Under the pieces are notes generated by a model that was not told the origin of the DNA, did no database searches, and saw only the letters and a program-made list of their open reading frames with translations. Below, piece after piece: positions 13,161-60,279 of a stretch of 64,000 nucleotides of DNA (positions are counted from its first letter, which is position 1; each line of letters opens with the position of its first letter). Location: positions 17,094-81,093 of the forward strand of contig JAZQFH010000013.1 in NCBI GenBank assembly GCA_045539425.1, given 5' to 3'. This stretch comes from Erysipelotrichaceae bacterium (lineage in GTDB: Bacteria > Bacillota_I > Bacilli_A > Erysipelotrichales > Erysipelotrichaceae). The position numbers and the translations under genes were made by a program.

Positions 13161-13185
13161 AAAAAGGCTCAATCGAGCCTTTTTT
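13161..13185 (-). terminator. intrinsic (bidirectional-type) terminator after the nucleoside hydrolase gene
   Basis: AAAAAGGCTC (13161-13170), loop AATC, GAGCCTTTTT (13175-13184). Confidence 0.75.
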
Positions 13186-16144: not shown

Positions 16145-17699
16145 TCATTGCACCTCCGATCTCTTCGGCGCTCTGGTGTTTGGCGCCTAACATGTAAATG
16201 CCCAGTTCCTGGTCATTTGTTTTACGGGCATCCGGGAAATAGCCGGCGATCTCCCCTTCGAACATGACAATGATTCTGTCGGAGAGGTCGAGAACTTCGT
16301 TTAAGTCAGCGGAGACTAAGAGAATACCGGCACCCTTGTTTCTGAGTTCAATCAGCTTATGGTGAACCAGTTCGGCAGAACCGATATCGATACCATGTGT
16401 CGGCTGTTCAGCAATCATGAAGTTTGGATCGGTGTTGTATTCTCTGGCAACGACGACTTTCTGTACGTTACCGCCGGAAAGAGATCCGACATTGGTCTTG
16501 CTGTCCTGTGTTTTAACGGCAAATGTTTCGATCAGCTGATCAGAGATTTTGTCAATGGCCTTCTGATTCATGAAGATTTTGCCGTTGATATCTTCTCTTT
16601 CGAAATAGGAAGAGATAATATTGTCGGAAATCGGCAGCGTAGCGGCAATTCCATCCACCATTCTGTCTTCCGGGATATATGCCATGCCGTTTTCACGTCT
16701 TTGCTTGACATTCATTCCGTTGATATCTTTTCCGCAGATGAGAATCTTACCTTCATATTCCGTCTTGGAAAGACCTGCCAGACATTTGACCAGTTCGGAC
16801 TGACCGTTTCCTTCAACACCGGCAATGCCAAGGATCTCGCCCTTCTTGACAGCGAAATTCATATGGTTCAAAACCGGTTTTCCGTTGCGTTCCATGTAGA
16901 GATCTTCCACAACGAGAGCTTTTTCATTATGGAAATCCTCATGAGTCTTGTACTGAGTCAGATCTTTTTCCAGATCACGTCCGATAATCAGGTTGGTCAG
17001 CTGTTCCATCGTTAATTCATCATTCCGGTACGTGCCTTTGGAAACACCGTTACGGATGACGGAAATTCTGTCAGAAATCTTTTTGACTTCCTCAAGCTTG
17101 TGAGAAATGAAGATGATCGTCTGACCCTGCTCCTTGAACTGGCGCAGCTGATCAAACAGTTTTTCCGTTTCCTGTGGCGTCAATACCGATGTCGGCTCGT
17201 CAAGGATGATCAGTTCCGCATTTCGGTAGAGCGTCTTTAAGATTTCGACTTTCTGACGTTTCGCGACAGAAAGTGAGGAAACCTTTTCCGTGACATCCAA
17301 TTCGAAATTGTATTTGTCAGAGACTTCCTGCGTACGGCGGATCGCTTCCTTACGGTCAATAAAGATACCGTTTTTCGGTTCCGAGCCAAGAATGATATTG
17401 TCGACAACACTGAATGACGGAATCAACATGAAGTGCTGATGGACCATTCCGATGCCGGCTTCAATCGCATCCATGGAACTGGTGAAGTGTACTTCCTTCC
17501 CCTTATAGGTCACGCTTCCGCTGGATGGAGCTTCAATCCCGAAGATGACTTTCATCAGTGTCGATTTACCGGCACCGTTTTCACCGACGATGGAGTGAAT
17601 CTCGCCTTTCATAAATTCCATGTTAATGTCACGGTTCGCTACGGTACCATTCGGATACACTTTTGTGACATTATCCAGTTTCAATATGGTTTCTGCCAT
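16137..17699 (-). CDS. ABC transporter ATP-binding protein with duplicated ATPase domains
   Basis: Start trimmed to ATG 17699 (MAETILKLDNV), which has GGAGGAGGAA upstream. Motifs: Walker A GENGAGKST, LSVAKRQKVEI, and LSGGNVQKV in the second domain. Confidence 0.9.
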   Translation of the reverse strand: MAETILKLDNVTKVYPNGTVANRDINMEFMKGEIHSIVGENGAGKSTLMKVIFGIEAPSSGSVTYKGKEVHFTSSMDAIEAGIGMVHQHFMLIPSFSVVDNIILGSEPKNGIFIDRKEAIRRTQEVSDKYNFELDVTEKVSSLSVAKRQKVEILKTLYRNAELIILDEPTSVLTPQETEKLFDQLRQFKEQGQTIIFISHKLEEVKKISDRISVIRNGVSKGTYRNDELTMEQLTNLIIGRDLEKDLTQYKTHEDFHNEKALVVEDLYMERNGKPVLNHMNFAVKKGEILGIAGVEGNGQSELVKCLAGLSKTEYEGKILICGKDINGMNVKQRRENGMAYIPEDRMVDGIAATLPISDNIISSYFEREDINGKIFMNQKAIDKISDQLIETFAVKTQDSKTNVGSLSGGNVQKVVVAREYNTDPNFMIAEQPTHGIDIGSAELVHHKLIELRNKGAGILLVSADLNEVLDLSDRIIVMFEGEIAGYFPDARKTNDQELGIYMLGAKHQSAEEIGGAMNG

Positions 17700-17720
17700 A
17701 TTCCTCCTCCTGTTTTCTAT

Positions 17721-17758
17721 AAAAATATATGCTCTATTAGGGCATAATAGAGCATATA
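17721..17758 (-). terminator. perfect 14-bp intercistronic hairpin with T-run (partial terminator/attenuator) between the binding-protein and ATPase genes
   Basis: TATATGCTCTATTA (17726-17739) pairs with TAATAGAGCATATA (17745-17758), with a 5-nt loop. On the minus strand it is followed by TTTTTAT, then the ATPase SD. Confidence 0.6.
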
Positions 17759-17784
17759 CTTCGTGCAATGTTAATTAGAATTAA

Positions 17785-18921
17785 TTATTTGCTGGCTTTG
17801 TTTGCGTCTCTCCATTCGACCCATTTTGCATATTCATCAGCGCTCATCGCCATTGTATCTGTAACAGTGATTTTGCCATCCTGAATATCCTTAACAACCT
17901 GGTCGACTTTGGCTCTGATTTCAGCAGAGACGTTTGCCTGATAGAATTCGTTGTTGGATAAGCCAACACCATTGGAATCCAGAGACCATGCTTCTGTCTT
18001 TCCTAATTTTTCAGCGAATGTGCCTTCAACAACCATTCTGACTGCTTCTGCTAAGACAACGTCAGAGTTCTTCTGAGCGGAAGTGATGATTGTCTTTGCC
18101 CAATCCGGCTGAGATGTTAAGAACTGACCATACTGGTCCTGGTCAACGCCAACACACCAGACTTCCGGATATTCCGCACAAGCCTGAATGACACCGTTAC
18201 CTGTACCACCAGCAACCTGCCAGACAACGTCTGCGCCGGCTTTGATGATGTCAGTCGTCTGTTCGTAACCAGCCTGCTGATCCTGGAACGGAGATGTGGA
18301 AACAACGTAGTCAACGATGAATTCAACACCTTTTTCGCTTAAAGCCTGGCACCAGCCACCGATGAACTGGTTCATAGCCTGGTTGTCCATACCTAATAAG
18401 ACGCCGACTTTGTTTGTCTTTGTGATTTCAGCACTTAATGTTGCAACAACATAACCTAAAGGACCTAAGCCGTAGTTGATGTTGTAGACGTTTTTGCAAG
18501 TGTCTCTGATTGTGGAAGCATCGAAGTTCATGAATGCCTGATCCGGATATCTTTCAGCAGCATCGTATAAGTATTCCTCATAGGAGTTGTTGCCGGAAAC
18601 GACTAAGTCGTATTCACCGTCTTCACAGAATTCATCAAAAGCGTTGTCCCAGACACCCTTTTCAGTTGTGTTACCAACTTCTTTGATGACGACATCAACT
18701 TTGTCACCATAGAGTTCAGTTGCTTTCGTAACGCCTCTGGCTAACGTATCGAAATAGGAGTTGTCGCCAGTGAACGGAACTAAAACAGCAACTTTCTTTT
18801 TCGTGACTTCTGCCGGTGTATCGCCTTCGCCGGATGGAGTCGGTTCTTCATTACCTTTGGAGCAAGCTGTTAAGCTGACAACCAACAGTAATGCGAGTAA
18901 AACAGTTAATAATTTTTTCAT
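17785..18921 (-). CDS. BMP-family (PnrA/Med/NupN-like) substrate-binding lipoprotein
   Basis: 378 aa. Signal peptide with lipobox, MKKLLTVLLALLLVVSLTAC. Periplasmic-binding fold pattern. ATGA overlap with the upstream ARH gene. Confidence 0.85.
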   Translation of the reverse strand: MKKLLTVLLALLLVVSLTACSKGNEEPTPSGEGDTPAEVTKKKVAVLVPFTGDNSYFDTLARGVTKATELYGDKVDVVIKEVGNTTEKGVWDNAFDEFCEDGEYDLVVSGNNSYEEYLYDAAERYPDQAFMNFDASTIRDTCKNVYNINYGLGPLGYVVATLSAEITKTNKVGVLLGMDNQAMNQFIGGWCQALSEKGVEFIVDYVVSTSPFQDQQAGYEQTTDIIKAGADVVWQVAGGTGNGVIQACAEYPEVWCVGVDQDQYGQFLTSQPDWAKTIITSAQKNSDVVLAEAVRMVVEGTFAEKLGKTEAWSLDSNGVGLSNNEFYQANVSAEIRAKVDQVVKDIQDGKITVTDTMAMSADEYAKWVEWRDANKASK

Positions 18922-20960
18922 TTTTCTCTCCTTTTACTGTTTTCTATATTTAAATCCAGCGTGCTGAATTTAAATCCATGGATTTCTGTAACGGCAGAAC
19001 TGAGGGAAAGAATTCCAATTCCGCCTTCAGGCATTTCCGGAAAATCGATCGAACACGATTCATCATTGAAATACACAGTAATTTTATCATTACTGAAGAC
19101 TGCTTTCAATGAATTTAGTATCAATATTTTATTGCTGATATTTTGAGAATACAATTTGGTGTATTTTTTGCCTTTCCGGTAAAGTTCAAGGCTGTTTCCG
19201 TTGATACCGAGCGCATAGAAATCCTGATATCCCCTGAAGCCGAAAACAAGCATTGCACTGAGGTTTTCGTTATTCTCAAAGTTCATCTCAATGCTTTTAG
19301 CGTGCATGGAAAGCGTGCCTGTTGTGATCAGGGCGTGAGGTGTCCCCTGTCCTTTTAAGCCGTTCTCGGAAAGAATCCACTTTCCGGAATGATTGTTAAA
19401 GCTGCGGATATTGTAAAGCGTATCACCGGCATAGCGCGGTCCGTATCCGTCATAGGAAAGCGTGGAAAAGTCATAGGAAACTCTGCTTTCGTGAGTTACG
19501 GAATAATCTTTCAGATAACACTTTTTCTGTGCAATAAAGCCGATTCTGTGAATGACCGTGTTAACAAAACCCTTGAGACGGAACTCGATTTCGCTCTCGC
19601 CCTGAATGTAATACACTGCTTCCTGCCTGTTCCCTTCGCAGTCTTCCGCAAAGACAGTCAGCCTGTTCTCTTCAGATGATTCAAATAAGAAATGCAAAAG
19701 ATCATGCGGGTAGTACTTCGGTGAGAAGACCGGATCATAGCGCGCATCGTAGATATCTTCCGGCAGATAGTAACTAAAGAAATAAACTTCTTCCTCTTTC
19801 GGTATTTCAAGTCTTCCGTCGGATACGGAAAGATAGGAAGAGCTCCTGAATCCCTCTGTCGCATACGGCAGTAAGAAGTGTCTGTAATCCGGTTTATCAT
19901 ACCCTTTCAGCTGCATGGCGTAGCGCGCAAACATCTGGGCACTGCGGGATACCGTATCGATATTCTCCGAACCGATACAGCTTGAAGCATTGACGACATC
20001 ATTGATCGGCTTGATCCAGTACGGATCAATTCCGTCAATACCTAAAAGTGCCCCCATGATGGAGCCGACATTTCCGCATGTGCAGTCGGTATCCCATCCG
20101 CACTGATTCAGAATGCAGAGTGTACGCGAGAAATCATTTTCTCCATAGCACATGGAAAGAACCATGATGGCACTGTTGGGTATGATATGACAGCTTCCCG
20201 CGAATTTATCATAACCGTAGTTCTTTTGAATATAACGGAAACAATCCAGCCAGTCGTTTGGATTATTCTGGTGGAAGTCCATGATGTCTTTTACAACACG
20301 GTAGTACTTCATACGGTGATCGAGATACCTGAGTGTTTCATTCAGAACATACATGATATCTTCACTCTGCATTGCCAGCGTAATGGCAACTGCCACAAAG
20401 ATTGCGCCCTGCAGTCCGTTTTTATCATGGGTCACGCTTGCCGCCTTGACGGCAAGATCTTTTGCCAGAAGCGGATCATAACCGCTGACATAACCCCAGC
20501 AGTCAGAGAAGATCTGTCCGCCGATCTGCTCCGCCATAACGATGCCGTTCTGCTCTTTGGAGCCGCTTTGCGGAGCACAAATCCCCTTCTTCAGGTTTTC
20601 GTATGCCGTATGTTCCGTTGAAACTCCAATTCCGCCCCACCAGAAAAAGCCGGTATACTCCTGCAAGTAATTCAGAAAGGAATCGCCGATGTCTTTGGCG
20701 CTGATATTGTTTCCTTTTTCGAGCGCACGGACAAAGAACAGAGGCCCGTTGGAATCGTCATCCGCAGCGAAGATATCATAGTCGGTTAAATATCCCTTGA
20801 TATCCGGATACTTTCTCTGTATCTCATCAAATGTCCAGCTTTCAATGGGTGCGCCTAAGCGGATCCCGATGATTTTGCCTAGCCATGAGGCATAGACTCT
20901 CTGAAGATAATCATTGTATGTGGACGGTGTTAGCTGTAGTGTCTGATTCAGTTTTTTCAT
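18918..20960 (-). CDS. ADP-ribosylglycohydrolase-family enzyme fused to C-terminal beta-sandwich (ConA/DUF1080-like) domains
   Basis: 680 aa with no signal peptide. ARH metal-site motifs are present: LGAPIES, AADDDSNGP, GWDTDCTCGNVGSIMGALLG. The C-terminal part, GKWILSENGLKG..VFGFRGYQDFYALGING..ITVYFND..GGIGILSL, looks ConA-like. Confidence 0.75.
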   Translation of the reverse strand: MKKLNQTLQLTPSTYNDYLQRVYASWLGKIIGIRLGAPIESWTFDEIQRKYPDIKGYLTDYDIFAADDDSNGPLFFVRALEKGNNISAKDIGDSFLNYLQEYTGFFWWGGIGVSTEHTAYENLKKGICAPQSGSKEQNGIVMAEQIGGQIFSDCWGYVSGYDPLLAKDLAVKAASVTHDKNGLQGAIFVAVAITLAMQSEDIMYVLNETLRYLDHRMKYYRVVKDIMDFHQNNPNDWLDCFRYIQKNYGYDKFAGSCHIIPNSAIMVLSMCYGENDFSRTLCILNQCGWDTDCTCGNVGSIMGALLGIDGIDPYWIKPINDVVNASSCIGSENIDTVSRSAQMFARYAMQLKGYDKPDYRHFLLPYATEGFRSSSYLSVSDGRLEIPKEEEVYFFSYYLPEDIYDARYDPVFSPKYYPHDLLHFLFESSEENRLTVFAEDCEGNRQEAVYYIQGESEIEFRLKGFVNTVIHRIGFIAQKKCYLKDYSVTHESRVSYDFSTLSYDGYGPRYAGDTLYNIRSFNNHSGKWILSENGLKGQGTPHALITTGTLSMHAKSIEMNFENNENLSAMLVFGFRGYQDFYALGINGNSLELYRKGKKYTKLYSQNISNKILILNSLKAVFSNDKITVYFNDESCSIDFPEMPEGGIGILSLSSAVTEIHGFKFSTLDLNIENSKRREK

Positions 20961-21061: not shown

Positions 21062-22120
21062 CTAATCCATCTGAATATATTTCTTCAGGTATTCCCTTAA
21101 GCCGGCAGTATCGCGATAGTATGGATTATCCGCATCATTTTCCGCATCCAGCCAGCCGATCAGATCTCCTTGATGGAACACCAGAACAGATGGCGCAAAA
21201 CTGACTTTCTGCGAGATGAAGTTTTCCGTCGCATTGGTGATATTGATGTTCATGTGGTAGATATTCCACTTCATCTCCTCTGCGACTTCCCTTACAATCG
21301 GCGTAAAGGAGGCACAGGTCAGACAGCCCGGAAGATGAAGATAAAGCAGAAACGACTGCTTATGATCCTGCAGGCTTTTGACAGCTTCAATGGAATCAAG
21401 ATCCGTAAAGATATCCTCGGATAACATCGGGAAACTGTCCGCACTTAAGAGCGGTGTTTCTTTTCGGGTCAAAGAGTCAAAATCAATGATGTGATATGTG
21501 ACTTCGGAAAGATCCACGCTGCCGTCTTCCTTTAAGAGATTTCGGGAATGCTCTCCCTTGTAGTACCAGTATCCCCCGGCATTATAGATCTTGTTTTCAT
21601 CATAGCCGAGTTCAATCAGAAGGTCCTTCATCATACCGGCATAGCCTCCGCCGCCGCACATCAGAATGATGGCTTTGTCTTTCGGAAAGATGGATTCTAT
21701 GATGGCTCTGCTTTCTTCGTATACTTCACTCAGCGTTCCGTCTTCATTTCGATGGAACAGTACTCTGCCCTCATACCCAGGAAGAACTTCTTCGGGAAGC
21801 GTCAGCTGATCCACAAAATACGGAAACGGTACAACTTCAAACCCTTCCAGAATTCCGCTGAGGCGGCTGTCTCCGCCGATGGCTTCGTAATTGGCCGGAT
21901 CTTCAATCATGCGGACATCATAGTAGGCACAGTCCTCACGGTTCAGATACTGATCAATCGTTTCCTCATTGATGTTGGCGTCGATTCCGAACATCTCTCC
22001 GCGGATCCCGCTCGCCCTCTGCGGCGTTGGTAACGGATCCAGCTTCGGTGTTACGGAACAGGCTGTCAGAAAAAGAAGAAGTGTAAAAAGACTTATAAGA
22101 CTAATCCTGTGTGGTTTCAT
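21062..22120 (-). CDS. lipoprotein with a rhodanese-like domain and a thioredoxin-like CxxC domain
   Basis: Start trimmed to ATG 22120 (MKPHRISLISLFTLLLFLTAC lipobox). Rhodanese-like IILMCGGGGYAGMM..IYNAGGYWYY. Trx-like LHLPGCLTCASF. The longer ORF-track version would overlap xerD by 173 nt. Confidence 0.65.
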   Translation of the reverse strand: MKPHRISLISLFTLLLFLTACSVTPKLDPLPTPQRASGIRGEMFGIDANINEETIDQYLNREDCAYYDVRMIEDPANYEAIGGDSRLSGILEGFEVVPFPYFVDQLTLPEEVLPGYEGRVLFHRNEDGTLSEVYEESRAIIESIFPKDKAIILMCGGGGYAGMMKDLLIELGYDENKIYNAGGYWYYKGEHSRNLLKEDGSVDLSEVTYHIIDFDSLTRKETPLLSADSFPMLSEDIFTDLDSIEAVKSLQDHKQSFLLYLHLPGCLTCASFTPIVREVAEEMKWNIYHMNINITNATENFISQKVSFAPSVLVFHQGDLIGWLDAENDADNPYYRDTAGLREYLKKYIQMD

Positions 22121-23030
22121 CCTCTTTTTTCTCCTTTCTCTGTGTATCCCGTTTGGGGAAGTAGGCATCATAAGTCTGATGCAGCTGCTTTGCCTGAACA
22201 TGCGTATAGATCTGCGTTGTGGAAATGGAGGAGTGACCGAGCAGCTCCTGAACGGAGCGCAGATCGGCTCCATTGGCTAAAAGATCCGTCGCAAAGGTAT
22301 GGCGGAAGGAATGGGCTGTGATATTCAGATCCAGTCCGAGTTCCTTTTCCTTTGCCGTCAGCATGTCACTGACATACTTGCGGCTGAGCTGATTTCCCCT
22401 GCGGTTGATCAATAGATAACTGAGATTTCTTTTGTTGTATTCCGGACGTGTCCCGTCCAGATAACAGTTCAGAAGATCTGCACTGCTTCTGGCAATTGGT
22501 ACCATCCGCTCCTTATTCCCCTTTCCGAGAACTCTCAGAAAGAGATTGGCACGGTTGTACTGGTTGAGGGTCAGATTGCATACTTCCGAGACCCGCAGTC
22601 CGCAGCTGTACATCAGTTCGCAGATGCAGTGATTCAAAAGTTCATGCGGATCATCATCGTTAAAACTGTCAAACAGACAGTTCAGTTCTTCCTCACTCAG
22701 AAAGCGCGGCAATGTCTTGGAGCGCTTCACGCTGGCCAGATTGACGGCCGGATTCTCCATTTTCAGATTATCCGCCAGATAATAATGAAAGCCCCGGATC
22801 GAGGTCAGAGATCGCGCAACGCTTGATTTCGACAGCTCATCCAAGGCAATGGCAATGTAGTCATAGATGGTTTTCTTACGGATCTCTTCCACTGTTGTGA
22901 TATTACGGGATTCCAGATAGGAAAAATAGCGCTTCAGATCAGCAGAATAGCTTTCGATGGAGCGGCTGCTCATTCCTTTGTTTACCGTGATATCGGTGAT
23001 GTAAAGATCGTAGGCATCTTTTAATAACAT
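22101..23030 (-). CDS. xerD: tyrosine site-specific recombinase XerD-type
   Basis: 309 aa. The C-terminal catalytic region is HSFRHTFATDLLANGADLRSVQELLGHSSISTTQIYTHV. Confidence 0.85.
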   Translation of the reverse strand: MLLKDAYDLYITDITVNKGMSSRSIESYSADLKRYFSYLESRNITTVEEIRKKTIYDYIAIALDELSKSSVARSLTSIRGFHYYLADNLKMENPAVNLASVKRSKTLPRFLSEEELNCLFDSFNDDDPHELLNHCICELMYSCGLRVSEVCNLTLNQYNRANLFLRVLGKGNKERMVPIARSSADLLNCYLDGTRPEYNKRNLSYLLINRRGNQLSRKYVSDMLTAKEKELGLDLNITAHSFRHTFATDLLANGADLRSVQELLGHSSISTTQIYTHVQAKQLHQTYDAYFPKRDTQRKEKKEDETTQD

Positions 23031-34752: not shown

Positions 34753-35418
34753 TTACATTCCGAAGTCGTTCTGATAGCTGACCAGGTTGACACTGATCAC
34801 ACCGCGCACCTGCTGCAGATTGAATAAGACCGCTTCCGTATGATTCAATTTCTCGATTTCATACGTTACTTCCGCAACACCCTTCTCGCTTGTGGACTTG
34901 CTGCGGAGATTCTTGCGGGAAAGACCGGCGAGCGCATCGTTGAGTCTTTCTTCCGCTTCCATGTCATAACGGATGATCAGAAGGTACGGTGTCTTCGCCT
35001 TGGTATCCGTTAAGTAGAATACGTAATAGAGGATACCCAAGAGAAGCGAGCCGACGATGCTGATGAAATAGAGGTTGGCACCGGACATGATACCGGCTGT
35101 GATTGCCCAGAACATGAATGCCGTATCCACCGGGTCCTTAATGGCCGTACGGAAACGGACGATACTGAGGGCACCGACCATGCCGAGAGAGAGTGAGAGG
35201 TTGGAGTTGATGGTACGGATGATCATCGCCGTCACCATGGATAATAAGAGGATGCAAAGCGGCATGCTCTTGTTGTAGACGATACCGTTAAACGTCTTGC
35301 GGTAGATGATGATGATATATACCGATACAATACAACTGACAAGCAGTGACGTCAGGATCATCGGTACACTGACCGGTCCGTTAAACTGTCCTGCGAAAAA
35401 TTCTCTGATCTGTTCCAT
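34753..35418 (-). CDS. DUF4956-family integral membrane protein with a C-terminal soluble domain
   Basis: The ORF-track start at 35424 is a TTG. ATG 35418 has AAAGGGGA 7 nt upstream. About four TM helices plus the signature-like ALSIVRFRTAIKDPVDTAF. Confidence 0.65.
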   Translation of the reverse strand: MEQIREFFAGQFNGPVSVPMILTSLLVSCIVSVYIIIIYRKTFNGIVYNKSMPLCILLLSMVTAMIIRTINSNLSLSLGMVGALSIVRFRTAIKDPVDTAFMFWAITAGIMSGANLYFISIVGSLLLGILYYVFYLTDTKAKTPYLLIIRYDMEAEERLNDALAGLSRKNLRSKSTSEKGVAEVTYEIEKLNHTEAVLFNLQQVRGVISVNLVSYQNDFGM

Positions 35419-35433
35419 AAACAAATCCCCTTT

Positions 35434-36126
35434 CTATTTCATGCTGCGGCAGAGCGCAAACTTGCTGATGGCAACCCGGACTTTCGGGATGCTGTATAAG
35501 ATTTCCAGTATATGCTGCGGAATGAACTCGTTGCATTTGACTTCGAGTACCACAAGGTTTGCCTCCTGAGCCAAAAGCGTTTCAGAGTCAAAATCAAAGA
35601 GGTCCGTGGTATATCTTCCGCTGCGGATATGATAGTCGAATGTGATGCGGACATCACTGACATCATAGATGTATGCGAGGCGGTCATAATCGACGATCAC
35701 ACTCGGTTTCAGGTGATTGGCACTCACTTCTTCCAGAAAGCTGACCAATAGTTCCCTTCTGTCGTTTCCGACTCGGAGTGTCCCGTCGATGAGTCCTTTT
35801 GCTTCTTCCTTGGTGATGGTGCAGTCTTCCTTCCATGTCATGTTATCATCCTTGTGCTTGCACTCCAGTTTGATAAAGGAAGGATCCTGGTTGTAAAGAC
35901 GGATGCGGTATTTCTTGCGGAACTCCACGCCGTCCATCTTTTCCGAAAAAGCTGTTGATAAGTCGTTATCGAAGTAAAGAGAGCGGATGCTGTAGGAGAG
36001 ATCCTCGCTGACGGAATGCTCATCCAGCTGCATCACCATCTTTAACTGCTGTTTCAATAAGAGCGTATGATATTCGCTGAGATAGAACTTCATCTCATAG
36101 CGGTAAGGTTTTCTTCTCTCTACCAT
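35434..36126 (-). CDS. VTC-domain (Vtc4-like polyphosphate polymerase / triphosphate-tunnel fold) protein
   Basis: 230 aa with no TM helix. The basic/acidic beta-strand series YRYEMKF, IRSLYFD, RKKYRIRLY, IKLECKHK and VVLEVK is typical of the tunnel fold. The start overlaps the cotH stop by 7 nt. Confidence 0.65.
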   Translation of the reverse strand: MVERRKPYRYEMKFYLSEYHTLLLKQQLKMVMQLDEHSVSEDLSYSIRSLYFDNDLSTAFSEKMDGVEFRKKYRIRLYNQDPSFIKLECKHKDDNMTWKEDCTITKEEAKGLIDGTLRVGNDRRELLVSFLEEVSANHLKPSVIVDYDRLAYIYDVSDVRITFDYHIRSGRYTTDLFDFDSETLLAQEANLVVLEVKCNEFIPQHILEILYSIPKVRVAISKFALCRSMK

Positions 36127-39014
36127 ATGCCCGGGAACAGCTCCTTCATCCTGCTTTCGGAAAGTCCGAAATAATTCTTGGTGGTATTGAGGAAGTAATC
36201 CGTACGTTTGATCGCAAAGTCACGGAGATACTGCACATTCTCTTCCCACTCTTCCATGGTCAGACCCCATCTCTCCTGATTGCGGTACATCTCAGGAAGA
36301 ATCGTGTCATGGATTTCATTGATCTTGGCAATCACGTTATCGGCATTCCAGATGTTCTGTACCATATAACTCATCCGTTCCAGCCATCTCTCACGGAAGC
36401 GCGGTGAGTTGAAGATGGAGCGGAGAATATCATTTTCAAAGGAGGAAAGTTGTCCGATTCCCCCGGCATTCAGCATATAGCCCCAATAGTAGTCAACGCG
36501 GATATTGTACCAGCCGAGGTCCGTGTCATAGAGGATCCAGCGGAACTTCCCGTCATTGAAATACGGGGAATTCCAGAAACGGCAGTTGACGATATCGTTA
36601 TTGGAGATAAAGGACTCGGAGATCCAGTAATCGATGAAGTTATCGATATCGATCATCTTCGTGAGTTCTTCATAGTATTCATCATTCGACATGGAATGCG
36701 TATTCGCATATTCACGGATCCGGTTGTACGGCGCATAGCTGCCGATGGTGACATCGTAGTCGATCCGCAGGATATTCATGTCATCCTTCGGAATATTGTA
36801 TTTCTCCGAGAAGAATGCCGTATTGATCTTCTCACGGATATTGTATAATCCCCAGTACTGACCGTTGATATAAAGAACGACAATCTTATAATCCTGCACA
36901 TCCACGTTGCTGTTGCCGTTCAATAACTCCGAAGCCAGAATATCGCGCATGTAGGCAACATCCCAGTCATTGGATCCGGTACGCAATACGACGGATTCAT
37001 AGATGCTGTTATCTTCCTTGTCAAAGAGAGGATACTCCAGATACTTCTCTCCCCACTGATCATTGAAACGCAGAGCGTAGGACTTTTTGCGGTGAGAGCG
37101 CGTATTGCCGCCGAAGCAGGCCATCGAACACGGGATAGAAAAAGAGGAGCCGTCTTCATAAAGCTCCGCATAGGCTTCTCTCTCTAAGCCGATCACATTC
37201 GGATTCCAGTTCAGATCATTGAAATAGCTCGGATTGAGAGAAACCGACATCACGGGTAAGGTGTGATGTTCATTGATAATATAGGATGCGCAGTTCATCT
37301 CGCTGGAGAGTGATCCTGCCGCATAGCTTTTGGCCTTAATGACGGAAGTCTCTTTTAAATGCAGCGGAGATTCATAGACCGGATCCGTTTCATCGGGAAT
37401 GGAGCCGTCCGTGGTATAGTGAATCGTACCGTTCGCAAATAATTCGACAACCACTTCCTCCACGTCATCATAAACACCCGGATTTGCCGAGTATTCCACC
37501 GGGGACTGCATGGAGCGCACTCCCGTTCCGTTTCCGTAAAGTGGTGTCGGGGTGTCAAAATAGAAGAATCCTTCGCTTTCTCCCCTGCCGTAACTGTAAC
37601 CGTAAGGCAGATCCGCATAGGCAACGGAATCCGCAATCTCATCGTTGTGATACAGATAGACATTGTCGACTTCGGAAAGCTTGAATCCGACATGCTGATA
37701 AGTCTGATTGGATAAAAGCGTATTGCCGGAGCACATGACAACATAGTATCCGTATGGCGGTAAACTGACATCGTTCAATGTATAGCACATCTGGGAATCG
37801 GTATTCTGATTCAGTGAGTATTCACTCAGCTGAATGGATTCCGAAGAGTTGTTGTACAACTCGATCCAGTCATAGGTCCTGTTACCGTTCTGCTCTAAAT
37901 AAGTGTCGTTCTGGGACATGAGTTCATTAATGACAAGTCCTGTCGGCATCGTAAGATATTTCTTCTGGAATGCCGCGATACCGTCCGGTGTATTCTCTTC
38001 TCCCATGGAGATTAAGGAACTGACGGAGTAGGATCCGTCATTATTACGGATTTCCGCCATGCCGCCGGAGAGGTTTTCATACACGTGGCGGTCGACGATC
38101 TTCCCGTTACGGGAAAGGATGATCGTACCGTTGCGGGAAGAGAGATTTCTTCCCAGATAACCTTCCATGACGCGGTTGCCGATATAGAAGGAAATCACTT
38201 CTCCGCTATAGAGATCTCTTTCAGGCAAATTGATTAAGAACGGCGTTGCCTCGCTGTCGCTGAAGACATATTCGCCAAGGTGTACCGTATGATCGGAAAC
38301 ATTCTTGAATTCAACGAAACCGTCATAATAACCGTATTCGTTTTTAAAGTTACCGTTATTGCGGATCAGGATCTCATTGATCACAAGTTCCGCTTCTTCC
38401 GCTGTCTCTAAGGAATTGAGATAGCTTCTGAGACCGTCCGCATTATTCGGATAGCCCGGTGTTCCATAAGAGGAAACACCCCAGGTTCCGCTGTTCTCGC
38501 GGACCATGCTTTCATTCTTGGTTAAGGCCACCGTTTCACATGCATCGATGATCTTTCCGGAAGGATTGAGCAGGATCACGTTTTCCCCGCCTTTCGAACT
38601 TAAGGCAAACGGAGCATTCATCTCCCCGCCCAGCTTTCCGCTTAAGGAAACGACTAGATAGCCGTGAGACGGAATCGTGACATCCGGGAAGGTCCATTTG
38701 ATGGTATCTTTGCGGTCACTTAAGGCATATCCGTTCAAACGGATTTCCTTTTCCGTGCCGTTATATAATTCGAGATAATCGCAGATCTCATTTGTTTCAC
38801 TGACAAAAACACCGCCGTTATTGCTCATGAGTTCGGAGATGATCAGCTTATGAATATCACTGTAGGAAGTATCCGCCGTATCATCTTCCGGTACGGGCAT
38901 GCTGTCCTGCTTCGGGAATAAAAGACTTAAAGCTACGATAATGGCCAAAAGAACTCCTGATAGAAGAAGGAATAGAACGTCCGGTTTTTTGCGTGTTTTT
39001 CTCTGTTTAGACAT
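36120..39014 (-). CDS. membrane-anchored extracytoplasmic CotH-family kinase-like protein with lamin-tail-like and Fn3-associated-like domains
   Basis: 964 aa. Signal anchor KKPDVLFLLLSGVLLAIIVALSLL. Repeated ISELMS/INELMS..DWIELYN modules (LTD-like). IHYTTDGSIPDETDPVY. CotH-type core FIDYWISESFISNNDIVNCRFW..FRWILYDTDLGW. Confidence 0.75.
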   Translation of the reverse strand: MSKQRKTRKKPDVLFLLLSGVLLAIIVALSLLFPKQDSMPVPEDDTADTSYSDIHKLIISELMSNNGGVFVSETNEICDYLELYNGTEKEIRLNGYALSDRKDTIKWTFPDVTIPSHGYLVVSLSGKLGGEMNAPFALSSKGGENVILLNPSGKIIDACETVALTKNESMVRENSGTWGVSSYGTPGYPNNADGLRSYLNSLETAEEAELVINEILIRNNGNFKNEYGYYDGFVEFKNVSDHTVHLGEYVFSDSEATPFLINLPERDLYSGEVISFYIGNRVMEGYLGRNLSSRNGTIILSRNGKIVDRHVYENLSGGMAEIRNNDGSYSVSSLISMGEENTPDGIAAFQKKYLTMPTGLVINELMSQNDTYLEQNGNRTYDWIELYNNSSESIQLSEYSLNQNTDSQMCYTLNDVSLPPYGYYVVMCSGNTLLSNQTYQHVGFKLSEVDNVYLYHNDEIADSVAYADLPYGYSYGRGESEGFFYFDTPTPLYGNGTGVRSMQSPVEYSANPGVYDDVEEVVVELFANGTIHYTTDGSIPDETDPVYESPLHLKETSVIKAKSYAAGSLSSEMNCASYIINEHHTLPVMSVSLNPSYFNDLNWNPNVIGLEREAYAELYEDGSSFSIPCSMACFGGNTRSHRKKSYALRFNDQWGEKYLEYPLFDKEDNSIYESVVLRTGSNDWDVAYMRDILASELLNGNSNVDVQDYKIVVLYINGQYWGLYNIREKINTAFFSEKYNIPKDDMNILRIDYDVTIGSYAPYNRIREYANTHSMSNDEYYEELTKMIDIDNFIDYWISESFISNNDIVNCRFWNSPYFNDGKFRWILYDTDLGWYNIRVDYYWGYMLNAGGIGQLSSFENDILRSIFNSPRFRERWLERMSYMVQNIWNADNVIAKINEIHDTILPEMYRNQERWGLTMEEWEENVQYLRDFAIKRTDYFLNTTKNYFGLSESRMKELFPGIW

Positions 39015-39023
39015 ATCTATGAA

Positions 39024-39032
39024 ATTATATCA
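39024..39032 (-). promoter_or_regulatory. extended -10 element 9 nt upstream of the cotH start codon
   Basis: Minus-strand TGATATAAT (39032-39024), then TTCATAGAT, then ATG 39014. No SD. Confidence 0.45.
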
Positions 39033-39070
39033 TTTTCTGCGGGATTGTGTGAAAACATATTCATAATTAT

Positions 39071-39100
39071 GAAAAAGAAAACCTGTCAGAGACAGGTTTC
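39071..39100 (-). terminator. intrinsic terminator after the small DUF2007-like gene
   Basis: AAACCTGTC (39079-39087) pairs with GACAGGTTT (39091-39099). On the minus strand it is followed by TCTTTTTC. Confidence 0.7.
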
Positions 39101-39102
39101 AC

Positions 39103-39384
39103 TTACAGCAATTCATTCAGCAGGCGGTTCGCTTTTTCCAGGTCTTTCTTTTTCACATAGATCACATAGACATAGTTCATGTCATGATCTACAAAGGAAG
39201 AAGACATTCCCCCGTTATATTTCCCGTAATTCATACGGTAATGCAGGTTTCTGCCGAAAGTGGTCTTGTTCCGTAATGTCTTCATCTCATAGGGAATCCC
39301 GTTTTTTCTTAAGAGCGAATAGACTTTCGCTGCTTCTTCCGCAGAGGAATCTTTCATTAATACCGTACGGTTCAAAAAGTTCAT
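39103..39384 (-). CDS. small hypothetical protein (possibly DUF2007-like)
   Basis: Start trimmed to ATG 39384 (MNFLNRTVLM), which has GAAAGGAGA upstream. The longer ORF would overlap the phosphoglucomutase 3' end. Confidence 0.5.
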   Translation of the reverse strand: MNFLNRTVLMKDSSAEEAAKVYSLLRKNGIPYEMKTLRNKTTFGRNLHYRMNYGKYNGGMSSSFVDHDMNYVYVIYVKKKDLEKANRLLNELL

Positions 39385-46686: not shown

Positions 46687-49600
46687 TCAGAATAAGGACA
46701 TCTGGTTTTCTTCCTGCAGTCCGTCAAGAACATGCAGCTCATCCAGCTTATCCAGCAGCGTCTTTGAGAGCTGCGTGCGGTCAAGAAGATCCTGCTTCGA
46801 GAGGAACGGACGCTCTTTCCGCGCTTCCACGATGCTCTTTGCGACGTTGTATCCCAGACCGTCGATCGTGGTAAAGGCCGGGATGATTGCTTTCTTGTTA
46901 TCGGGATCCAGTACCCATTCCGAAGCATCGGAATACTCCAAAGACAGATTGGAAATACTGAAACCGCGGCAGAAGAGCTCATTGGCGACTTCCAGCGTTG
47001 TGACCAGCCCTTCTTCCTTATTGGACACGCCTCTTCTGACTTCGATTTCCTTGGAAGAGAGACGGTCCTGAATATTCTTTAATCTGGCCGCATTGGCTTC
47101 CTTGCCGGCAATCATCGTGCCGATCTCGAAATAGTCGCAGCGCAGTGTAAAGAAGCTGATGTAGTAATAGAGCGGATGGTAGACCTTGAACCAGGCAACA
47201 CGGATGGCCATCATGACATAGGCAACGGCGTGGGCTTTCGGGAACATGTACTTGATCTTTAAGCAGGAATCGATGTACCAGTCCGGAACATTGTTTTCCT
47301 TCATCAGTTCGATCCATTCATCCTTTAGGCCCTTCCCCTTACGGACACTCTCCATGATATCGAAGGAGCTCTTCGGGGGAAGCCCTTCCTTGATCAGATG
47401 CGTCATGATGTCGTCACGGCATCCGATCACGTCGTTTAATGTCTTGCCTTTGGCAACGAGGTCTTTGGCGTTGTTATTCCAGACGTCTGTCCCGTGCGAG
47501 AGTCCGGAAATACGGACCAGCTGCGAGAAGACGTTCGGACGCGTATCACTCAGAATCCCGCGGACAAAGCGCGTACCGAACTCCGGCAAACCGAGAGCTC
47601 CGGTTTTCTCGTTGTAATACGTTGTATCCTGAATCTTCAGCGCTTTGGTGGAGTTGAAGATGGAAATGACCTTATCGTCATTCATCGGGATCGTGCGGAC
47701 GTTGATGCCGCTGATCTTTTCCAATAAGCGCATGCACGTCGGGTCGACATGTCCCAGATTATCCAGCTTCAGAACATTGTCATGAATGGCATGGAAGTCG
47801 AAGTGTGTCGTCTTCCATTCACTCTCCGGATTGTTTGCCGGATACTGGACCGGTGTAAAGTCATGGACATCCATGTTCCGCGGAATAACGATGATTCCGC
47901 CCGGATGCTGACCGGTGGTGCGTTTGACGTCCGTGCAGCCGACGGCCAGATAGGTTTTCTGGGCATTTGTCAGCTTTTCGATTCCCATCTTTTCCATATA
48001 TCCGCGGATATAGCCGTACGCGGTCTTTTCCTGAACGCCGCTGATGGTACCGGCACGGTAGACCTTGTCTTCGCCGAACACCGTCTTGGTATACAGCATG
48101 GCATTTCCCTGATATTCCGACGAGAAGTTCAGGTCGATATCCGGAACCTTGTCGCCATAGAAGCCAAGGAATGTTTCAAACGGGATATTCTGTCCGTCCG
48201 GCTTCATCTCTTCACCGCAGACAGGACACGGCTTGCTGTTGAGGTCAAAGCCGCTCTCGCAGTTTTCCACCAGTTCGAAATGATGGCATTTCGGACAGAC
48301 ATAATGCGGAGGCAGCGGATTGACTTCCGTGATGTTACTCATGGTTGCGACAAAGGAGGAACCGACGGAACCACGCGATCCGACCATGTAGCCGTGGTCG
48401 TTGGAATCCTTGACCATTAGGTGCGCGGTATAGTAAATAACCCCGTAGCCGTTTCCGATGATGGAGTTTAACTCCTTCTCTAAGCGTGCGGAGACGATCT
48501 CAGGCAGATTCTCACCGTAGCGCTCATGCGCTGTCTTATAACAGATGGCTTTCAGATTCTCATCGGCACCGTCGATAAACGGCGGATACAGCTTATCCTT
48601 GCACGGAAAGGCAGGTTCGATCTGATCCGCGATCTTGTTGGTATTCTCTACCACGATTTCCTGAATGAGGTCTTCATCTTCCAGGAAACGGAAAGCTTCG
48701 AGCATCTCATCCGTGGTACGGAAATGCTGGTCCGGAGCCACGCTCTTGTGACGTGCTTCTTCGTTATAGATATATAACGGGTGAACCACGCCGCCGATTC
48801 CCTGCGCCATGATGTAGACATCACGCAGTATTTTCTGGTCCGGATGGGTATAGTGCACATCCCCTGTCGCAACAACCGGAATCTTCAATTCCTTTGCGCA
48901 GGAAATGATGTCTTTTAAGATCATATGTAAACGGTCGAAATCGGCAATGGAATGATTATCAATCAGAAAGCGGTAGTTTTCGGGAGGTTGAACCTCAATG
49001 AAGTCATAGAACTTCATGGCCTCTTTCAGATCGTTTTTACTTGATGTAGACGCAAGATCGAAGATCTCCCCGTTACAGCAGGCGGAACCGATCAAAAGGT
49101 TCTGTCGTAATTCCTGGATCTTCTCACGCGGAATCCGCGGTTCGGCCATGAACTCATCGCTCTTGGTGGATACCTTACCGCCAAAGAGCAGATAGTCGGT
49201 ATGGCTGATGGAGATCAAACGGAACAGATCCTTGATGCCGTCCTGATTCTTCGCAATGACATTGACGTGTTTTTTCGTGACTTTCTTAAAGGCATCCGCG
49301 TCGTTCAGATTCTGCAGATCATCTACCGTCAAGAGGAGCCCTTCCGATTTCATCATGCCGTTTGGCAGATAGTTCATCTGCTTGATGCTCTGCAACATGC
49401 GGATGAAGACTTCCCCTGTCACTTCCGCATCGTAGTCGGCACGGTGTGCGACATCTTCGTCATATTCCACTTTATAGAAGCTGGCAACCTTGCCCAGGCG
49501 GTAGGATTTCCGCTCCTTTAATAAAGCACGGGAAAGATCCAGCGTATCGATATAAGGATTCTTTAACTCCGGCTGATTCAGCTTGCGAAGTGCGGCATTA

Positions 49601-51021
49601 ATAAAGCCGATATCGAATTTGGCGTTATGCGCGACAAGCGCCGCATCTCCGAAGAACTCCATGATCTTCGGCAGTGCCACTTCAATCGGATCCGCATTTT
49701 CCACATCAGAATCCTTGATGTTTGTCAGTTTTTTCGTGAAATCCGCCAGTTTGACCGGAGGCTTCACAAAGAGCTGCAGACGGTCCGTTACACCGCCGTG
49801 TCCGATCTTGACGCCGCCGAATTCGATGATATGGTCATAGCGGTTGCTTAATCCCGTAGTCTCTAAGTCGAATACGACATAGGTACGGTCCAATGATCCT
49901 CCGTCCGGATTCTTGATGATATTCAGAACCGGGTCGATCATATTCATCTCGCATCCGTAGAGAACCTTGAACGGATCCTCCGGATTGGACTTGTTCAGCT
50001 TATTCATCGCAATCTGCGCTTCCGGGAATGCCTGAACAACATAGTGGTCGGTAATCGCCAGCGAGCGCATCCCCCAGGCGTAGGCCTGGTTGATCAGTTC
50101 GGTAGCGGATGAGACACCGTCCATTTCACTCATCTTTGTATGAGCGTGCAGTTCCACTCTCTTCTTCGGAGCACGGTCGATTCTTCCCTGCGGACGGTCG
50201 ATCTTGACCATTTCATTCGGATTGTTCAGCCGCACGTGAAGTTCGAGTTCCTGTGTCATCTTATTCAGTTCCACATCGCCATAGATGCGGACATAGTTTC
50301 CCGTTTTAAATTCGCCCAGCTTTTCTTCCAGTTCGTTTTTACGTACATCCCGTCTGGCCAGGAAAACTCCTGTCGCATCCTTGATATAGTAGTTGATCAT
50401 TTCCATCTCGCCATACGATCTGCCGCCGCGAAGTGAGACCGTATCTTCCACTTTGAAAAGCTCCCCTTCCAGAATGACCTTGTTGATCTTCTGGTTGATG
50501 TCGGCGATGTTGATTCGGGTATAGCCGCTGTATGGATTATAGGTGACTTTCCTGGAAGCCTTGCTCTTATGATCGAGATAGATGCTATAGGATAAACCGT
50601 AGGAGGACATGCTGCGCTCGATATCGAGCTTTCGCTCCTGACATTTGTCAAGATCCGCATCTTCCGCAAAGAGGAGATGCAGCTCTTTCCCGTTCAGGGA
50701 AACACCCGCATTTTCGAGTGACGGAAGCTGCAGCGATTGCGCAATGTGGTTCAGATAGCTTTCAAAGATTCCCTCACTGACAAAAAGATCCGTATATTTC
50801 AGATTCAGTGTCACTTCGCAATCCAGCTGTTTCTGCAAAAACCGATGCAGTTTTTCATAGGTTTCATAATCCAGCGGTGTATCCAGAATGAGATCCCAGT
50901 ATAAATGTCTGGTGAAGCGGTCAAAGATCGGCTGAGAGCATTCAGCATTATGAAAAAGAGAAATCTCTTTCTCTGTAAATCCGTGATTCAGGCTGATGAT
51001 TCTCTCCAGCATCTCTTTCAT
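46687..51021 (-). CDS. polC: DNA polymerase III alpha subunit, PolC type
   Basis: 1444 aa. Has a PHP domain, an inserted DEDD exonuclease (VVFDLETTGL) and a zinc-finger region CPKC..CPVCG. Confidence 0.97.
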   Translation of the reverse strand: MKEMLERIISLNHGFTEKEISLFHNAECSQPIFDRFTRHLYWDLILDTPLDYETYEKLHRFLQKQLDCEVTLNLKYTDLFVSEGIFESYLNHIAQSLQLPSLENAGVSLNGKELHLLFAEDADLDKCQERKLDIERSMSSYGLSYSIYLDHKSKASRKVTYNPYSGYTRINIADINQKINKVILEGELFKVEDTVSLRGGRSYGEMEMINYYIKDATGVFLARRDVRKNELEEKLGEFKTGNYVRIYGDVELNKMTQELELHVRLNNPNEMVKIDRPQGRIDRAPKKRVELHAHTKMSEMDGVSSATELINQAYAWGMRSLAITDHYVVQAFPEAQIAMNKLNKSNPEDPFKVLYGCEMNMIDPVLNIIKNPDGGSLDRTYVVFDLETTGLSNRYDHIIEFGGVKIGHGGVTDRLQLFVKPPVKLADFTKKLTNIKDSDVENADPIEVALPKIMEFFGDAALVAHNAKFDIGFINAALRKLNQPELKNPYIDTLDLSRALLKERKSYRLGKVASFYKVEYDEDVAHRADYDAEVTGEVFIRMLQSIKQMNYLPNGMMKSEGLLLTVDDLQNLNDADAFKKVTKKHVNVIAKNQDGIKDLFRLISISHTDYLLFGGKVSTKSDEFMAEPRIPREKIQELRQNLLIGSACCNGEIFDLASTSSKNDLKEAMKFYDFIEVQPPENYRFLIDNHSIADFDRLHMILKDIISCAKELKIPVVATGDVHYTHPDQKILRDVYIMAQGIGGVVHPLYIYNEEARHKSVAPDQHFRTTDEMLEAFRFLEDEDLIQEIVVENTNKIADQIEPAFPCKDKLYPPFIDGADENLKAICYKTAHERYGENLPEIVSARLEKELNSIIGNGYGVIYYTAHLMVKDSNDHGYMVGSRGSVGSSFVATMSNITEVNPLPPHYVCPKCHHFELVENCESGFDLNSKPCPVCGEEMKPDGQNIPFETFLGFYGDKVPDIDLNFSSEYQGNAMLYTKTVFGEDKVYRAGTISGVQEKTAYGYIRGYMEKMGIEKLTNAQKTYLAVGCTDVKRTTGQHPGGIIVIPRNMDVHDFTPVQYPANNPESEWKTTHFDFHAIHDNVLKLDNLGHVDPTCMRLLEKISGINVRTIPMNDDKVISIFNSTKALKIQDTTYYNEKTGALGLPEFGTRFVRGILSDTRPNVFSQLVRISGLSHGTDVWNNNAKDLVAKGKTLNDVIGCRDDIMTHLIKEGLPPKSSFDIMESVRKGKGLKDEWIELMKENNVPDWYIDSCLKIKYMFPKAHAVAYVMMAIRVAWFKVYHPLYYYISFFTLRCDYFEIGTMIAGKEANAARLKNIQDRLSSKEIEVRRGVSNKEEGLVTTLEVANELFCRGFSISNLSLEYSDASEWVLDPDNKKAIIPAFTTIDGLGYNVAKSIVEARKERPFLSKQDLLDRTQLSKTLLDKLDELHVLDGLQEENQMSLF

Positions 51022-59638: not shown

Positions 59639-60223
59639 TTAGACTCCTTTACGTTTCAGTAACAGCTGCAGAGCGAAGCGGACATATTCTTCAGAGCTGT
59701 GCAGCTCCTTGTTGTTCTGTAATTCTTTCATGATCGGTGTGATTTCATTCTGCTTGTATCCCAATGTCTTTAAAGCACTGACTGCATCATCCAGTTCCAA
59801 ATTGGCAGCTTTTTCTTCCGCACTGTCGGAATGAACGAGCTTGCCTTTCAGATCCAGAATGATCTGGCTGGCTGCCTTGGCTCCGATTCCCGGAAGCGCC
59901 TTTAGGGAAGCGACATCGTTATTTTCAATGATCGTGATCAGATCGTTCACACTGCGGTGTGCCAGGATGTTCTGTGCCGTCTTCGGCCCGATTCCCTTAA
60001 CGCCGATGAGCGACAGGAAAAGATCATATTCCTGCATGGAGACAAAACCGAAGAGACTGATCTCGTCTTCTCTGACATGCTGATAGGTATAGATGGTAAC
60101 TTCCTTATTCAGAGACAGTGTCTCCGGATGCATATAATTGATACGGAAGCCGATGCCGTGATTTTCCAGAATCACCCAGTCGATTCCGTAGGAATGTACT
60201 TTACCTGAGATAAACGCTAGCAT
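59639..60223 (-). CDS. ruvA: Holliday junction DNA-binding protein RuvA
   Basis: 194 aa. HhH motifs [10 protein letters not shown] and LPGIGAKAA. Confidence 0.95.
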
Positions 60224-60251: not shown

Positions 60252-60279
60252 AGAAAAAAGATTCTATAGAAGAATCTTT
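60252..60279 (-). terminator. intrinsic terminator after obg
   Basis: AAGATTCT (60258-60265) pairs with AGAATCTT (60071-60078 offset corrected: 60271-60278). On the minus strand it is followed by TTTTTCTT. Confidence 0.65.

Follow-up and report, generated by a model that had tools for sequence, protein, structure and literature searches.

A stand-alone cotH–VTC–DUF4956 operon in an Erysipelotrichaceae bacterium: a candidate module for polyphosphate synthesis and export

The 64,000-nucleotide stretch of contig JAZQFH010000013.1 (assembly GCA_045539425.1, positions 17,094 to 81,093 of the forward strand; hereafter the window) from an Erysipelotrichaceae bacterium raises the question of what joint task is served by three adjacent minus-strand genes that encode a CotH kinase-like exoprotein, a VTC-domain protein and a DUF4956 membrane protein. 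The initial annotation of this DNA had proposed that the three form one module, possibly a split Vtc4-like system for polyphosphate (polyP). Synthesis of polyP in bacteria has been attributed to PPK1 and PPK2, and VTC has been treated as eukaryotic; a 2023 review mapped VTC only across eukaryotes and listed PPK1/2 for bacteria (PMC10657179). Yet approximately 9,900 clusters match a bacterial VTC profile.

The gene trio itself is already in the literature. The combination of cotH, a “polyphosphate polymerase” gene, DUF4956 and DUF4832 was described as the accessory genes of Gram-positive pel operons (bioRxiv 10.1101/768473; PLoS Pathog 2020 preprint). In Streptococcus intermedius, the products of SIR_1594 (cotH), SIR_1593 (VTC) and SIR_1592 (DUF4956) were modeled, with the catalytic residues and the MgtC/ACT nature of DUF4956 noted, and the first knock-outs were reported (mBio 2025, PMC12345266). 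The co-occurrence, which the initial annotation had called visible in annotations, is thus also published. According to the S. intermedius study, the arrangement does not occur away from pel loci (PMC12345266). The window and 80 related loci contradict this statement: the window holds a stand-alone variant, and the present analysis contributes the demonstration that the trio is autonomous and need not accompany a pel operon. We tentatively read it as a self-contained, envelope-directed phosphate module, in which synthesis and export of polyP would serve an extracytoplasmic CotH enzyme, and we give this reading somewhat less than an even chance.

A conserved and translationally coupled gene trio

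The open reading frame (ORF) listing of the window contains the three genes on the minus strand. The first, cotH (36120-39014, minus), encodes a predicted membrane-anchored exoprotein of 964 aa with three lamin-tail domain (LTD) repeats, a CHB_HEX_C/Fn3_assoc domain and a CotH kinase domain; the VTC gene (35434-36126, minus) encodes a soluble, Vtc4-like triphosphate-tunnel protein of 230 aa; and the DUF4956 gene (34753-35418, minus) encodes a predicted MgtC/SapB-like membrane protein of 221 aa, counted from its ATG. The listing confirmed the layout given in the initial annotation, with a 7-nt overlap between the cotH stop and the VTC start (36120-36126) and a 15-nt gap between the VTC stop and the DUF4956 ATG (35419-35433). 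The first possible start of the DUF4956 ORF is a TTG (34753-35424). The ATG at 35418 lies two codons further in and is preceded by a Shine-Dalgarno sequence, AAAGGGGA, and the resulting 221-aa product is 100% identical to a database protein.

To describe the conservation of this layout, we used a scan with one genome per species, in which at least 558 species had a relative; the best 80 loci, with 45-74% identity, were analyzed. These loci come mostly from metagenome-assembled genomes of Erysipelotrichaceae and other Bacilli of gut and rumen, and a homologue search with a deliberately diverse profile returned the same clade and did not broaden the context sampling. The trio is adjacent in 80/80 loci wherever the contig permits. 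Two of the loci read VTC-DUF4956-cotH, and all the others cotH-VTC-DUF4956. The cotH and VTC genes overlap or abut in 72/74 loci, with spacings of -4, -7 or -11 nt dominating, and the gap between VTC and DUF4956 has a median of 12 nt. The trio is a conserved, translationally coupled operon, far beyond chance adjacency, as the initial annotation had surmised in calling it one module. The flanks vary: 94 immediate neighbors fall into 87 Pfam families, with no enrichment of glycosyltransferases or deacetylases. Because the flanking genes change between loci, we conclude that the trio moves as a unit.

The same trio with the same CotH architecture is present in a very common gut species (L086-L088), whose VTC protein is listed in 527 contig-index blocks. 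In this species an MvaI/BcnI-type restriction endonuclease gene follows the trio, one variant carries an inserted prophage-like integrase segment, and the spore-coat genes YutH and CotZ lie within 6 kb. In three other loci (L036, L043 and L057) a second, full-length cotH paralogue stands directly after DUF4956, giving cotH-VTC-DUF4956-cotH.

Linkage to pel was considered and rejected for the window and its clade. The neighbor census found no pel genes beside the 80 related loci. The window scan, which covered most ORFs of at least 150 aa except the minus-strand ORFs at 46687-51021, 58639-59637, 59639-60223, 60278-61561 and 62791-63963, found no pel-type glycosyltransferase, deacetylase, PelG or other polysaccharide-synthesis gene.

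Five more distant loci, with 24-37% identity, were obtained as matches in a plasmid collection, and the VTC-DUF4956 pair is present in 5/5 of them. On the Pseudobutyrivibrio (Lachnospiraceae) plasmid pNP95, cotH-VTC-DUF4956 lies inside an exopolysaccharide (EPS) cluster of GT2, GT4, GT61, acyltransferase and pyruvyltransferase genes, with a phosphodiester glycosidase gene near the trio. The order is VTC-DUF4956-cotH in a Nonomuraea locus and on a Planococcus plasmid (L082), where a hypothetical gene, a HEAT-repeat gene and a glycosyltransferase gene follow. The Enterococcus faecalis plasmid LR962858 (L085) has VTC-DUF4956, a response regulator, a histidine kinase and then cotH, and Paenibacillus cellulosilyticus (L084) has VTC-DUF4956 followed by a Cthe_2159 carbohydrate-binding protein gene. 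In both L085 and L084 a response regulator and histidine kinase pair stands inside or beside the module. Since VTC-DUF4956 is found in all five distant loci and no CotH was detected near it in one, the pair is the constant core of the system and CotH is its usual third member.

About 40 of the 80 related loci add genes for two further membrane-anchored exoproteins, one of approximately 450 aa with no Pfam family and the other a NAGPA/phosphodiester glycosidase. Their genes either follow DUF4956 directly or stand upstream of cotH in divergent orientation (for example L058:11383-12762, L050:6959-8038 and L081:1-2228); the window contains neither. The NAGPA partner, together with the Pseudobutyrivibrio phosphodiester glycosidase, hints at sugar-phosphodiester chemistry at the cell surface. 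All recurrent partners, namely NAGPA, the 450-aa exoprotein, the EPS cluster of pNP95, Cthe_2159 and streptococcal pel, are extracytoplasmic or glycan-related.

The three predicted proteins

The VTC protein matches the Pfam VTC family (PF09359) over residues 9-225, covering profile positions 2-229 of 235 (E 1e-35; 123 bits against a cut-off of 23). Pfam and hydrophobicity analyses found no other domain, no SPX domain and no hydrophobic segment, in line with the earlier description of this protein as soluble. The AlphaFold2 (AF2) model has a pLDDT of 92.9, and its closest structures are the crystal and cryo-EM structures of the Vtc4 catalytic domain (3g3r, 7ytj and 8i6v; TMq 0.69-0.72, E ~1e-12). 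Vtc4, Vtc2 and Vtc3 account for the 13 best structural matches. The first non-Vtc tunnel protein is E. coli YgiF (TMq 0.55), the other triphosphate-tunnel metalloenzymes (TTM) reach at most 0.57, and YgiF, CYTH cyclases and thiamine triphosphatase all rank below Vtc4. At the sequence level, profiles were needed, as a search of the PDB with the single sequence returned nothing relevant. A profile of 35 homologues matched only Vtc4/Vtc2 in the PDB, and a diverse nine-sequence profile matched Vtc4 (E 6e-18), with Vtc4 and its paralogues the sole PDB sequences found.

These alignments allowed the Vtc4 active site to be mapped onto the window protein, using a Vtc4 numbering equal to the 3g3q chain index plus 185, an offset that was checked on full-length 8i6v_E. 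Vtc4 K200 corresponds to K13 (36088-36090, minus), R264 to R74, R266 to R76, K281 to K90, Y359 to Y147, R361 to R149 and R373 to R160. Toward the C-terminus, E426 corresponds to E195, S457 to S221 and K458 to K222 (35461-35463, minus). A profile of the C-terminal third alone matched nothing in the PDB, so this part of the mapping depends on a weak HMMER segment of the diverse profile, which is colinear but not significant by itself. In Vtc4, polyP synthesis requires these residues, which act as ligands of triphosphate or Mn (E426 binds Mn), and K458 is the one that has given way to I or L in Vtc2/Vtc3, which are catalytically inactive (cryo-EM, 10.1101/2023.01.27.525886). Across the bacterial alignment, with sequences 24-100% identical, the mapped residues do not vary, not even where identity to the window protein drops to 24-33%, and the 44 bacterial VTC sequences aligned all keep the complete active site. 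The bacterial proteins also keep the classical TTM E-x-K motif (E11-M-K13), whereas Vtc4 has T198 in place of the glutamate. Overall, the VTC protein shows, by sequence and model, the fold and complete active site of the polyphosphate polymerase Vtc4, and polyP synthesis is predicted for it.

An exhaustive search over 1.84 billion representatives, with a profile built from bacterial VTC proteins, yielded 9,879 clusters (50% identity) at E ≤1e-3 and 1,127 at E ≤1e-30. Most of the best 150 representatives are stand-alone proteins of approximately 225-250 aa. About one fifth of these 150 belong to a long type from another clade (P0314, P0322, P0327 and P0372), in which an N-terminal extension of 140-390 aa is strongly basic, rich in K, P, E and Q, of low complexity and without a Pfam match.

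In the CotH protein, the Pfam CotH domain (PF08757) spans aa 634-940 (36195..37115, minus; E 9e-40, 137.6 bits against a cut-off of 23.8). It is preceded by three LTD stretches that lie N-terminal to approximately aa 480, the best-scoring at aa 55-161 (38532..38852, minus), and by a CHB_HEX_C_1/Fn3_assoc domain at aa 512-572 (37299..37481, minus). A predicted signal-anchor at aa 9-36 (38907..38990, minus) is the only hydrophobic segment and follows a basic N-terminus, MSKQRKTRKKPD. The anchor, accessory domains and CotH core agree with what the initial annotation had described. Length and architecture are the same in 71 orthologues, and all 71 of these full-length proteins have the basic N-terminus and one hydrophobic segment, from which an N-in/C-out topology with the kinase domain facing outward is predicted. 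As with VTC, the single sequence found nothing relevant in the PDB and profiles were needed; a profile of the C-terminal 365 residues matched Bacillus cereus CotH (5jd9, E 9e-10). The predicted catalytic residue D807 (36594-36596, minus) aligns with B. subtilis D228 and the predicted metal-binding residue D830 (36525-36527, minus) with D251. Both are invariant and align with their 5jd9 equivalents at the same spacing of 23, and an R-x3-KKSY motif common to 5jd9 is also invariant. Bacillus CotH is an ATP-dependent Ser kinase that is inactivated by mutation of D228 (catalytic) or D251 (metal) (PMC7821199). The intact catalytic residues and the signal anchor lead us to expect an active CotH enzyme that is exposed on the outer side of the membrane.

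The DUF4956 protein matches its Pfam family with an E of 3e-11. Its AF2 model, built on an alignment of database homologues, has helices at residues 18-42, 51-69, 74-92, 96-113 and 117-138, followed by a beta-alpha-beta-beta-alpha-beta domain. A transmembrane (TM) part (aa 18-138; 35005..35367, minus) and a soluble tail had been anticipated by the initial annotation and are borne out, with five predicted helices in place of the four or so that it had counted. According to the model and the fold search, the tail (aa 145-214; 34777..34986, minus) is an ACT-like domain; it matched only ACT-type domains, including the C-domain of Mycobacterium tuberculosis MgtC (2lqj, TMt 0.61). Furthermore, 37 of 38 DUF4956 members gave a colinear, sub-threshold match to the full-length MgtC/SapB model NF007431 (best E 2e-9), and the window protein itself stays below the MgtC/SapB cut-offs (NF007431, 21.8 bits against 214; PF02308, E 0.078). 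Based on these matches and the ACT-like tail, DUF4956 appears by sequence and model to be a remote MgtC/SapB relative with about five TM helices.

Across very divergent DUF4956 proteins the only invariant residues are I35, Y48, G82, A83, S85, R88, F89, R90, G109 and G113. The R88-F89-R90 triplet of the signature GA(L/F)SxxRFR (35149..35157, minus, codons read directly) lies at the end of helix 3, where it is joined by K94 in the clade of the window. The positive-inside rule, and a tail taken as cytoplasmic, would place R88-F-R90 and K94 at the cytoplasmic face of the membrane. There they may be reminiscent, by analogy, of the rings that K24 and R31 form at the Vtc channel mouth (10.1101/2023.01.27.525886). 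A detached Vtc4/Vtc1-type TM domain was considered for DUF4956 and rejected, as there is no similarity in fold or Pfam family, and Pfam scans gave no DUF202 match. The “split Vtc4” of the initial annotation consequently holds for the catalytic half only, which has the Vtc4 fold and active site, because DUF4956 is not a Vtc-type channel domain. Any translocase role of DUF4956 would be analogous to that of Vtc4 and not a “split” of it.

Proposed polyphosphate export and its rivals

In the proposed mechanism, the cytoplasmic VTC enzyme would polymerize polyP from ATP while docked on a DUF4956 oligomer, whose invariant arginines would stand in for the basic rings of the Vtc1/3/4 channel. The polyP chain, or its phosphoryl groups, would cross to the outer face of the membrane, where CotH would use it to modify a surface glycan or wall protein, either by phosphorylation or by attachment of phosphate or polyP. 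Outside Gram-positive cells, ATP is scarce or unavailable. The phosphodiester glycosidases, carbohydrate-binding proteins, glycosyltransferases and Pel co-encoded by relatives suggest that CotH acts on a glycan or on the cell wall. In its boldest form, as a third bacterial polyP route made up of a Vtc4-like polymerase, an MgtC-like exporter and extracytoplasmic CotH enzymes that use polyP instead of ATP to modify wall glycans or surface proteins, the proposal is unlikely. Among the observations that the initial annotation had said would tell against a module, the computable ones were looked for: the trio is adjacent in related and distant loci, all tunnel-domain catalytic residues are present, and nothing of the kind was found.

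Several points weigh against export of polyP to CotH. In S. intermedius, ΔSIR_1594 and ΔSIR_1592 lowered Pel-dependent aggregation and changed the Pel level, the cotH and DUF4956 deletions affecting that level in opposite directions, while ΔVTC (ΔSIR_1593) had no aggregation phenotype (PMC12345266). A linear pathway from VTC through DUF4956 to CotH is weakened by this result, because the VTC deletion is silent while the other two change aggregation. Among the best 150 of the 9,879 VTC clusters, a Rosetta-stone search found no VTC-DUF4956 fusion, and in the Paenibacillus locus no CotH was detected within 10 kb of VTC-DUF4956. The DUF4956 model is of moderate confidence (pLDDT 75), and its fold search returned no chain of the VTC complex, even though 7ytj, 8i6v and 9umg are in the library. 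MgtC relatives are known as regulators, and we know of no precedent for a channel among them. CotH retains the KKSY and Asp motifs of an ATP-using kinase, and to our knowledge no CotH-fold enzyme uses polyP. In our literature search we found no biochemical data for any bacterial member of the trio, no paper that assigns a biochemical function to the trio or proposes export of polyP to CotH, and no functional work on bacterial VTC, on DUF4956 or on CotH with polyP beyond the pel papers.

The main rival of the export model, which we judge somewhat unlikely, has polyP remain cytoplasmic, as a reserve or a stress signal; DUF4956 would sense or regulate phosphate and energy state through its ACT domain, and CotH would merely be co-expressed within a biofilm or envelope programme and rely on another donor. 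The remote MgtC/SapB homology of DUF4956 and its ACT-like tail agree with such a role, as do the two-component systems inside some loci, and MgtC is a sensor or regulator of phosphate and energy state in Salmonella. The phenotype of the VTC deletion, unlike those of the cotH and DUF4956 deletions, also argues for it, and cytoplasmic polyP with a role in “phosphate metabolism” is favored by the S. intermedius authors (PMC12345266). However, this explanation does not account for the finding that, in 72 of 74 loci, the gene of a cytoplasmic polymerase overlaps or abuts the stop of a gene for an exoprotein, for the extracytoplasmic nature of every recurrent partner, or for the donor supply of an outward kinase with intact catalytic residues.

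It is improbable, in our estimate, that VTC is not a polymerase but a triphosphatase, a polyP- or nucleotide-processing enzyme or a synthase of a small signal, whose product or substrate would be read by the ACT domain of DUF4956. The CYTH/TTM superfamily is functionally diverse, other members were matched more weakly in the fold search, and the bacterial proteins retain the classical E-x-K glutamate that is T198 in Vtc4. Against this stand the 13 best structural matches, all held by Vtc4, Vtc2 and Vtc3 with YgiF only at a TMq of 0.55 against 0.71-0.72 for Vtc4, the profile that matched Vtc4 and its paralogues as the sole PDB sequences, and the invariance of all nine Vtc4 ligand residues, K458 included.

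A similarly slim chance attaches to the idea that CotH is an ATP-dependent protein or glycan kinase, or a non-catalytic adhesin, served by ATP released from cells, with VTC and DUF4956 as unrelated passengers that shared regulation keeps close by. CotH-like exoproteins also occur without VTC, the characterized Bacillus CotH is an ATP-dependent Ser kinase, and the ATP-type motifs are conserved here, whereas the passenger role is at odds with a tight, taxonomically broad linkage with overlapping reading frames, and the scarcity of free ATP outside Gram-positive cells speaks against the donor. Finally, fortuitous adjacency of ORFs that form no functional unit, for which nothing was found, is refuted by the conserved synteny and retains next to no probability.

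If export of polyP to CotH is correct, it would explain how an outward-facing kinase works without extracellular ATP, and the module would become the first kinase system driven by polyP to act beyond the bacterial membrane. The MgtC-like fold would acquire a biochemical function and a first foothold for studies of its mechanism, and polyP would be tied to biofilm matrix and wall chemistry in gut and pathogenic Firmicutes, such as S. intermedius with Pel, Clostridium perfringens with NELoc-2 and E. faecalis with its plasmid. As the stand-alone trio is the minimal form, the question is directly testable by heterologous expression.

Surroundings of the module and comparison with known systems

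The module has its own predicted promoter and an upstream terminator hairpin. The promoter, a sigma-70-like site with a near-consensus extended -10 (39024..39053, minus; TTCACA, 18 nt with TG, TATAAT; 11/12 matches), is called by consensus match only, in a region not enriched in promoter-like sites. Position 39032, where the initial annotation had ended the module, is 18 nt upstream of the cotH ATG and within the -10 element. The -10 element ends 10 nt before this ATG and direct inspection showed no Shine-Dalgarno sequence before it, so the cotH transcript is probably near-leaderless. Further upstream, a hairpin with a T-run (39078..39100, minus) ends a small ORF after pgm and parts the module from the pgm transcription unit. 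This ORF (39103-39384, minus), between pgm and cotH, encodes 93 aa when read from an internal ATG with a GGAGA Shine-Dalgarno and has a weak, sub-threshold resemblance to DUF2007; in a longer, 122-aa reading it overlaps the 3' end of pgm.

The window otherwise contains housekeeping genes, with polC-side genes, nusA, infB, rbfA and pgm on one side of the module and GNAT, Fe-ADH, truB, ribF, nusB, xseA, ispA, dxs and others on the other side. No CotB or CotG was found among the window ORFs surveyed. Elsewhere, at 13184-20960 (minus), the gene of a 680-aa protein, which starts with an ADP-ribosylglycohydrolase domain and has no assignment for its C-terminal half, lies upstream of those for a Bmp/PnrA-type nucleoside ABC transporter and an inosine-uridine nucleoside hydrolase, possibly an ADP-ribose or nucleoside salvage cluster. 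At 21062-23030 (minus), a 403-aa ORF without a Pfam match overlaps the 3' part of an ORF for a XerC/D-type tyrosine recombinase by approximately 170 nt, and the start of one of these two ORFs has probably been placed wrongly.

Compared with known systems, the module shares with PPK1/PPK2 a presumed polyP product or substrate, made from or used with nucleotides, but the fold is unrelated, and PPK lacks any coupling to a membrane partner or an exoprotein. NELoc-2 of C. perfringens encodes two VTC-domain proteins, CotH, a HEAT-repeat protein, a glycosyltransferase and a deacetylase. The linkage of VTC and CotH to polysaccharide genes is alike there, and the Planococcus layout of VTC, DUF4956, CotH, hypothetical, HEAT and glycosyltransferase genes is the same; the window module, in contrast, stands alone, with no glycosyltransferase or deacetylase. 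DUF4956 resembles the MgtC/SapB proteins (Salmonella MgtC; 2LQJ) in its approximately five predicted TM helices and C-terminal ACT-like domain, and differs in having its own signature, GA(L/F)SxxRFR, and in always being paired with a VTC gene.

With the spore-coat CotH of Bacillus (5JD9/5JDA), the window CotH shares the kinase-like fold family, the equivalents of D228 and D251, and KKSY. It differs in being predicted to be membrane-anchored and extracytoplasmic, in its large accessory domains, in a vegetative (sigma-A-like) predicted promoter, and in having no CotB/CotG-like substrates nearby. In the yeast VTC complex, the likeness lies in the tunnel fold (TM ~0.72), in all triphosphate/Mn residues including K458, and in a membrane protein as obligatory genomic partner with basic residues at its predicted cytoplasmic face. 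Unlike the yeast enzyme, the bacterial protein has no SPX domain and keeps the TTM glutamate E11, neither it nor its partner carries a Vtc-type 3-TM (DUF202) domain, the partner is MgtC-like with an ACT tail, and the product would go to the cell exterior and not to a vacuole.

The pel accessory block and the window trio agree in their three contiguous, co-oriented gene families, in gene order and in predicted topology. In the window, however, the trio is not downstream of pelDEADAFG, CotH carries three N-terminal LTDs and CHB_HEX_C and not a C-terminal FN3 domain, and in place of the DUF4832 hydrolase, which the window does not have, the related loci add NAGPA and the 450-aa exoprotein.

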